From contig JAPYYK010000144.1 of assembly GCA_028534125.1 (NCBI GenBank), forward strand, positions 496,001 through 560,000: a DNA stretch of 64,000 nucleotides, written 5' to 3'. The position numbers and the translations under genes are program-made. Positions within the stretch are counted from its first letter, which is position 1. Each line of letters starts with the position of its first letter. The notes under the pieces were generated by a model. The model did not search any database and was not told the origin of the DNA. It worked only from the letters and a program-made list of their open reading frames with translations. Below are positions 10,756 to 11,965 of this stretch, in pieces. The stretch comes from Lama glama. Its lineage: Eukaryota.

Positions 10756-10877
10756 CATAAAGACAGAAAACTGACATGATAGTTTTAAAAATCAAAGTAT
10801 GGAAACAACCTAATTTTATATCAACAGGAGGCCAGGTAAATAAATTGTGGTATATTCATGCAATGGAAGACTCTGAG

Positions 10878-11366
10878 TGTAGGCCCCCGACTGTGGGAAC
10901 AAAGGAACGAGCCGTGGGCCGGAATGGTAAACAAGTTAAAAAAAGCTGCAGACTCAGAGGTGAGAAGGCTGGTTAGCCAAGGACGGGTAAGATCCCCAGA
11001 GGGGGGAACCTAAGACACACACAGCCGCCTGAGTCCAGGACGAATGTTGTGAAGCAGCCGTTTCTCATACATTCCACCCTGATAAGCTGTAAGGCTCGCT
11101 GGTGCCAACACGAACATGATTTACCAAAACATAAAGGGTCTTCTGACCTCGAGCCAGATGCTGCCTGTTAACCATTTCCCTTGTCATTCTTCTTTGCTAT
11201 ATAAGACTGTGTAACTTAATAAAGCTTCAGAGTAGCCATCAGCTCTCTCCGCATACGGTGTGTATGTGTACATGGTATCGTGACACTGACATTTGGTGAC
11301 CCCAATGTGATATCAGCGCGGTGAACTACATGTAAGTAAGGGGATAATTTATATCGGGGGCCTACA
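10878..11366 (+). mobile_element. LTR-like retroelement insertion with 13-bp terminal inverted repeats, 5-bp TSD and internal tRNA-Trp PBS
   Basis: TSD CTGAG (10873-10877 and 11367-11371); TIR TGTAGGCCCCCGA (10878-10890) / TCGGGGGCCTACA (11354-11366); TATATAA 11198-11204; AATAAA 11218-11223; CA-TT then PBS at 11290-11311. Confidence 0.9.
11294..11311 (+). other. Retroviral primer-binding site complementary to the tRNA-Trp 3' end
   Basis: TGGTGACCCCAATGTGAT vs canonical TGGTGACCCCGACGTGAT: 16/18, both mismatches are CpG-decay transitions. Confidence 0.85.
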
Positions 11367-11965
11367 CTGAGCAATGAAAACGAATGAGAAGGACAGACGC
11401 TCCCATCAACATGGAAAAATCTCTAAAACCTAATGTTGAACTAAAAAGAAGCAATTGTTACAAAGACAGATATTACTGAAAAGTTAAAAAACATCTAAAA
11501 CTAATATCTATATATTTTTATAGATGCATCTGTATTTAGGAATAATGTAAAAGCAGACAGGAATTATTTTTAAAAAATTGATGAAAGCAGTAACATCTGG
11601 GGAATGTGTAGGGGAAAGTGATCAAAGAAAAGTACATAATAGACATCACCTTATCTAGAATGTACTATTTCTTTTAAAGTTTGAAACAAATATAGGATAA
11701 TACATGAACATTACTGATACAATTTTCCCTTTTTGTCTATATGTTTGAAATATTTCATAATGAAAATTTTAAATGAACAAAATGGACAAGATTTGGCAAC
11801 TTTTTAAGAGTAGTTTTAAATGGAGTAGGTTAAAATGAACTAAAGAGAAAATGAGAGGTAAGGAAGGGTAAATTCTTCTTTTGAGAAGTTTGACTTCCCC
11901 CTCTGAGTGATCTTGGAGAGGTTATTTAACCTCTCTGAAACTCAGTTTTCTCATCCATAAGATGA

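Follow-up and report, generated by a model that had tools for sequence, protein, structure and literature searches.

A 489-bp llama insertion bearing a retroviral U3 attachment end on both sides: a likely relic of faulty reverse transcription rather than a new mobile-element family

The closest described relatives of the insertion reported here are aberrant and defective proviruses. Like the aberrant HIV-1 and ASLV proviruses in the accessible text of PMC5041404, it combines one normal end, a truncated other end, short homology at the join and an inverted extra piece of viral sequence. Some defective HTLV-1 proviruses with a normal 6-bp repeat arose before integration, as far as the excerpt of PMC6950816 goes, and our unit resembles them in having a truncated genome within a target repeat of normal length, hence in probably having been defective before integration. 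With class II solo LTRs it shares TG...CA ends, an integrase-type TSD, the absence of coding sequence and a likely origin in recombination between repeats, and with MITEs and TRIMs a short, non-coding body with TIR or LTR ends and a TSD. Finally, vectors with a second PBS or with extended minus-strand DNA have reportedly been studied by Mikkelsen in 1998 and in the dual-PBS work of Voronin and Pathak; these vectors are similar in that priming downstream of the PBS can lengthen the terminal repeat.

The window, which is the whole 64,000-nucleotide stretch of Lama glama DNA that was analysed, reads as a unit of 489 bp (10878-11366) set between two copies of CTGAG (Table 1). The TSD, perfect TIRs, TATA, AATAAA, U5 end, PBS and GTAAGT donor listed in the original prediction were all confirmed in the sequence. 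The unit opens with TGTAGGCCCCCGA (10878-10890) and closes with the exact reverse complement (11354-11366). Because CTGAG is itself nearly palindromic, the inverted arms recovered by a repeat search (10873-10890 and 11354-11371) extend from 13 perfect bases to 17/18 complementary positions. By composition, the chance probability is ~1e-8 for a given 13-mer at a fixed place and ~6e-5 for the 7 bases beyond the contribution of the leader; a chance origin of the inverted repeat is excluded. These last bases, 11360-11366, are the only part of the right end that the leader cannot supply. The unit runs 75 bases beyond U5, and the inverted piece stops exactly at the U3 terminal CA, where the 5-bp TSD directly adjoins. 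The insertion lies in an L1, whose two best left-flank matches place the right flank 45 and 47 bases further on, where 46 bases are expected for a 5-bp TSD without loss; right-flank alignments are no better than shuffles, and an L1 that runs on uninterrupted beyond the insertion is suggested rather than established. A first comparison of the L1 register gave no informative pair, and a right-flank search matched only the studied locus and its mirror.

Table 1. Features of the insertion and its target site, numbered from the first base of the window.
Feature	Position	Strand	Basis
TSD, left copy CTGAG, nearly palindromic	10873-10877	.	Sequence; 5 bp is the commonest TSD length among solo-type copies
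Complete 414-bp LTR (U3-R-U5) of a multi-copy ERV family	10878-11291	+	Bounds from paralogue TSDs
U3 attachment end of normal type, LTR bases 1-13	10878-10890	+	Commonest start among 28 aligned copies
TATA (TATATAA)	11198-11204	+	Sequence
Poly(A) signal AATAAA	11218-11223	+	Sequence
U5 terminal CA	11290-11291	+	Sequence; TT spacer follows
PBS for tRNA-Trp(CCA), downstream of the TT spacer	11294-11311	+	Match to host tRNA-Trp 3' ends
Proviral leader, collinear with intact proviruses to TCGGGG	11312-11359	+	Leader and PBS comparisons
GTAAGT within the leader	11332-11337	+	Sequence
Switch point, 6-bp microhomology TCGGGG common to leader and inverted U3 end	11354-11359	+	Comparison
Inverted copy of the first 13 U3 bases, acting as right end	11354-11366	-	Sequence, repeat search
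TSD, right copy CTGAG	11367-11371	.	Sequence

The LTR belongs to a family with 686 LTR candidates in the same genome, of which 40 were scored (non-self matches at 91-96% identity) and 30 fetched; two self matches and one mirror duplicate were left out, giving 27 paralogous loci (22 solo-type, four 5' LTRs followed by a PBS, and one 3' LTR). Since a TGTAGGCCCCCGA-type end, with a TSD adjoining, is also where the paralogues start, the left "TIR" is the normal U3 attachment end, exact in six of the 28 aligned copies including the unit, and the proposal of an inner LTR from 10892 wrapped in a new TIR shell is refuted. The paralogues end at the U5 CA equivalent to 11291. Among the 22 solo-type copies, an exact 5-bp TSD flanks 16 (two of them probably allelic contigs), a 6-bp TSD four (one counted after correction of a one-base offset), an imperfect 5-bp TSD one, and none was found for one. 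PBS or leader follows U5 in 0/22, which speaks against a family with an extended U5, another of the models first put forward. Where the other copies end had been named as the deciding check: those examined end at the equivalent of 11291, mostly with their own TSDs, which fits a single aberrant integrant and leaves the family reading unsupported. Solo forms dominate the family, with 686 LTR candidates versus 13 PBS-pattern matches. One LTR copy (L011, G000:C94620:506773-507181) has an altered 3' end and lacks a recognisable TSD.

From the column-wise commonest letters the unit's LTR differs at 13/414 positions, or 7/384 outside CpG columns; the median divergence of the 28 copies is 4.1%, or 2.9% outside CpG columns, and the two LTRs of one provirus differ at 15/415. 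Taking a rate near 2e-9 per site per year, LTR divergence would very roughly suggest an age of ~7-15 million years, a figure biased by the choice of copies for their likeness to the query. Rfam returned 0 matches at E up to 1, and the accessible portion of PMC8605555 holds no entry for this LTR family.

In a natural provirus of the parent family (L031), flanked by a 5-bp TSD, the two LTRs enclose remnants of protease, RT and integrase together with gag-like and env-like sequence; the TSD of another provirus, L036, is 6 bp. RVP, RVT_1 (below the Pfam cut-off) and Integrase_Zn were found in 3/7 fragments of L031. Its RT has 7sr6 as best PDB match (E 6.5e-23, with lentiviral RTs at 1e-8 or weaker) and its protease 1nso/3sqf (E 2e-16), which we take to be HERV-K RT and M-PMV protease, respectively; lentiviral enzymes are much more distant from both fragments. 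Judged by protease and RT similarity rather than by a tree, the parent family is assigned to the class II (betaretrovirus-like) ERVs. Class II ERVs typically have a 6-bp TSD and a tRNA-Lys primer, the latter not strictly. The parent family departs from both norms, with mostly 5-bp TSDs and a tRNA-Trp PBS; a betaretrovirus-like family that pairs such a PBS with mixed 5/6-bp TSDs is unusual by these standards. A 15-mer of the intact PBS copies has 15 genome matches, six at the end of ARAGORN tRNA-Trp genes, and the unit's PBS differs from that of the L053 copy at 2/18 positions, both CpG sites. The same 18-mer is used as primer for chicken endogenous proviruses, according to the available text of PMC5029493. 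In a sister subfamily (L047, L048 and L049, also L055, L060, L063 and L064), two successive leader/gag-start-like segments, ~115 bases apart, follow the PBS.

How often does such a unit occur? The junction pattern gave three matches, namely the studied locus, its mirror and one unrelated site, and the two-arm pattern gave two, the locus and its mirror (control 0), with no second element bearing both arms found by this search of the llama's own genome. The inverted U3 end outside a normal LTR start gave six matches versus 16 in the control; two are self, three lie in a longer related LTR and one is unrelated. These searches used exact or lightly degenerate patterns on a fragmented assembly (1.07 million contigs), with 40/686 LTR candidates scored, and on this basis the unit, with its family-typical TSD and a U3 attachment end at left and right, is likely a singleton. 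That fits the third model of the original prediction, a one-off aberrant integrant with an inverted U3 attachment end.

A second copy at 100% identity was rejected as a sign of a family. The scaffold of the window (C121284, 620,897 bases) is its own reverse complement, with 0 mismatches over 8,898 + 9,899 bases compared, a 100-N gap near the centre and the two unit matches at mirror positions, so that the mirror duplicate is a scaffold artefact. Paired inverted matches with matching coordinate sums are also seen on C94620, C33370 and C103508, and the mirroring of all four scaffolds likely reflects assembly artefacts that double copy counts. Likewise, word content of sequencing runs was rejected as a sign of the insert in other animals: a share of 0.83-0.90 of the words is present in 20/24 runs (5 organism labels, 8 studies), and an empty allele could reach ~0.83-0.86, so filled and empty alleles are inseparable. 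Of the insert 31-mers, 258/459 also occur in paralogues, and flank-only words make up 0.665 of the tested stretch.

The junction itself is sharply defined. Over PBS and leader (11292-11359) the unit follows intact proviruses as far as TCGGGG, agreeing with the proviral leaders through TTTATATCGGGG (11359); it then reads GCCTACA and completes the inverted U3 start. All 12 leader candidates were scored, and the 10 non-self ones run on as normal leader, as do the 11 non-self loci among the 13 PBS-pattern matches. TCGGGG, with CpG-decayed forms allowed, occurs only twice in each of two natural proviruses (5.6 and 5.0 kb), and because the word is so rare the switch is taken as guided by homology. 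In copies with CpG intact, the natural leader site keeps the terminal CA in register and matches the inverted 13-mer at 10/13 (L053) or 9/13 positions (L054 and others), and the additional matches beyond the 6-bp word form a weak excess (P 0.07 for 4/7, 0.24 for 3/7). An env site binds the 13-mer at -21.7 kcal/mol versus ~-14.5 for the leader site, in RNA-RNA values that serve as proxy, and leaves its 3'-terminal base unpaired. The CTGAG target also stands out, as both outer pairs are complementary in 0/16 other family TSDs, with ~1 in 16 expected by chance. Look-alikes of the inverted U3 attachment end are present in env, on the sense strand of L031 (5283-5295; 9 bases, then ACA after one extra base) and as an exact 11-base match near 393-420 of L070/L071 in a distant subfamily.

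What could have produced such an end? The unit switches at a 6-bp microhomology, stops exactly at the attachment CA, has a TSD of the family's length and is without further copies in the searches run. We give an even chance to a one-off template switch during reverse transcription that created two U3 ends, followed by normal two-ended integrase insertion; the two-ended reaction is favoured by the U3 attachment sequence at both ends together with the TSD usual for the family. The interior was probably lost through solo-type recombination, and the unit is likely a rare trace of reverse transcription gone wrong rather than a new mobile-element family. In the proposed sequence of events, the nascent plus strand (its first 13-15 bases from the polypurine tract) would anneal to the leader ~42 bases past the PBS and would prime minus-strand synthesis instead of the tRNA. 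The 3' repeat of the resulting provirus would then read U3-R-U5-PBS-leader-inverted U3, integrase would insert the two U3 ends by its ordinary two-ended reaction, and recombination of the two 482-bp direct repeats after integration would leave exactly the unit, as with any solo LTR. Alternatively, in a copy-back variant, the plus strand would fold back on its 5' end, and the 0.5-kb product, with a U3 end on either side, would be integrated directly. By either route no family is expected, because the extra end lies beyond R and is not passed on via the RNA copy.

The more specific version, in which the first 13-15 plus-strand bases of the virus replaced the tRNA as primer and a two-U3 provirus integrated in vivo to become an "extended solo LTR" later, we put forward tentatively and with distinctly lower confidence. 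It would explain why the inverted piece is short and reaches the U3 terminus exactly, why it comes so soon after the PBS and why the interior is missing. In HIV-1, reverse transcription has been described as pausing at a plus-strand fragment of 12 nt (PMC3185654, from its accessible text), and priming from sites downstream of the PBS has been reported with mutant tRNAs (PMC3832253, likewise in excerpt). However, the leader is not the best site for the 13-mer, as env is better by energy and the matches beyond the 6-bp word are weak, and the near-palindromic TSD suits switch-back models better. Moreover, RNase H leaves a DNA primer in place, so that the second strand transfer would need strand displacement, a step that we assume. 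Our literature search found no paper describing such a two-U3-end product.

The main alternative, though unlikely, is a one-ended integration rescued by the host. Integrase would have joined the U3 end only, and the truncated end (TCGGGG) would have primed on the nearby U3 end, followed by copying across the attachment sequence and a switch to the host strand at the near-palindromic target, which would produce the 5-bp duplication. This explanation would account for the near-palindromic TSD, a feature of 0/16 others, and for an inverted match that runs 15 perfect bases into the TSD and 17/18 overall. It also follows a published model (PMC5041404, Varadarajan-type), in the accessible text of which one end is normal, the truncated end uses short homology and viral sequence is appended in either orientation. 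According to the same excerpt, though, such ends usually show much larger duplications, deletions or inversions and not the normal short repeat, and rescue requires that almost all of the viral genome be broken off or resected, up to a point shortly after the PBS.

We regard a deletion after integration as improbable. Here a polymerase, in replication or repair, would have switched from the leader to an inverted U3 end and on to the end of the 3' LTR (ACACT), losing the interior. Microhomology is available at both junctions, TCGGGG (6 bp) and ACACT (5 bp), as U5 ends in GACA before CT and the inverted U3 in TACA before CT; yet two switches are needed, the second exactly onto the LTR end, and ACACT occurs 7 times in a 6.7-kb stretch of L031. 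Still less probable is that one integration complex received its U3 ends from two separate viral DNAs, whose inward-pointing genomes were then joined and trimmed at TCGGGG. From integrase geometry this would yield the exact attachment end and the 5-bp TSD without further assumptions, and it also leans on the behaviour of integrase in vitro, but it leaves the 482 versus 13 asymmetry and the closeness to the PBS unexplained, and the literature search gave no in vivo precedent.

Two further origins seem very unlikely to us. The right end might derive from env and not from U3, by a leader-to-env deletion at GGGG that ended at an attachment look-alike. Indeed, GGGGGCCTAACA is present in the env of 3/4 close copies, with one more change in the fourth, and the distant, probably allelic copies L070/L071 hold GGGGGCCTACA, which matches exactly over 11 bp. 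Against this, the unit's own subfamily would require an additional one-base loss, the inverted U3 matches 13/13 with no env-only base present, and a DNA end exactly at that CA would be unexplained. Just as improbable is a junction made by the assembly: the exact self-mirror of the scaffold demonstrates that this assembly has inversion artefacts, but a misjoin is not expected to yield a 5-bp TSD of family length within an apparently continuous L1. The reading as a new family of TIR-bounded mini-elements, or as a subfamily of LTRs with extended U5, is close to refuted, for despite the clean TIR and TSD, the fragmented assembly with few LTR candidates scored (40/686; 1.07 million contigs) and a related LTR family that did amplify a U5 extension, the TIR-pair pattern is confined to the studied locus and its mirror, the 10 non-self leader matches and 11 non-self PBS loci all run on as normal leader, and an LTR transcript starts at R, so that U3 could not be regenerated from the unit.

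That related family is of interest in its own right. Its LTRs (TGTGGGAGCCC...GAACCCACA, ~605-835 bp, mostly with a 6-bp TSD) have U3 sequence in common with the unit's family, and in a ~800-bp recombinant form the first 281 U3 bases of the unit's family are internal, starting exactly at the attachment sequence (46 pattern matches, including one mirror pair; e.g. L072, L073, L075 and L080-L091). An 18-base 3' extension, AC-TGGTGA(C/T)-GAACCCACA, gave 109 matches in a pattern search (control 0; loci L080-L091 and L107-L136, e.g. G000:C4:91537000-91537527) and is made up of a 2-base spacer, a stretch of 7 bases that resembles the beginning of a Trp PBS, and a repeated attachment end. The 3' end exists in two forms: a TSD after the second attachment sequence bounds the extended form in 17/30 loci examined, the other 13 giving no scripted call, and three copies seen stop at the first. 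Possibly the extension represents an amplified growth of U5 through the PBS, or its middle could instead be a diverged tandem duplication. The related family is nearer to the earlier model of an extended U5, and a better lead for LTR growth, than the unit itself.

As one dead insertion, the unit has little consequence for its host. If our explanation is true, however, it is evidence from nature that integrase can act on a pair of U3 ends in vivo and that a short template switch can rebuild an attachment end, a point of relevance to the evolution of LTR ends and lengths; the same kind of end-rebuilding may have made the amplified 18-bp U5 extension of the related family. Should the plus-strand-primer reading hold, mammalian genomes could be searched for such relics as a class of their own. 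There are also two practical warnings: an aberrant provirus can be taken for a MITE when elements are detected by TIR plus TSD, and mirrored scaffolds in GCA_028534125.1 double copy counts.

In conclusion, the unit is a variant of known aberrant proviruses that is real, unusual and single. MITEs differ in having dispersed copies, whereas the unit has TIR and TSD in a single copy and its TIR is a retroviral attachment sequence; TRIMs differ in that the unit has one LTR only, without a second direct LTR or PPT. Unlike class II solo LTRs, it has a PBS and a leader, and its right end is inverted U3 rather than U5. The tRNA-linked deletions in the accessible part of PMC12220202 have a different structure. 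Second-PBS vectors are engineered and tRNA-primed, whereas the primer proposed for the unit would be the virus's own plus-strand start. The HTLV-1 defective proviruses in the excerpt of PMC6950816 are without a 5' LTR and have an internal join, whereas the unit keeps its 5' LTR and gains an inverted U3 end. Compared with the aberrant HIV-1 and ASLV proviruses, as covered by the available text of PMC5041404, which are drug- or mutant-induced, the unit is germline-fixed, its appended piece is an exact attachment end and its host duplication is a normal 5 bp.
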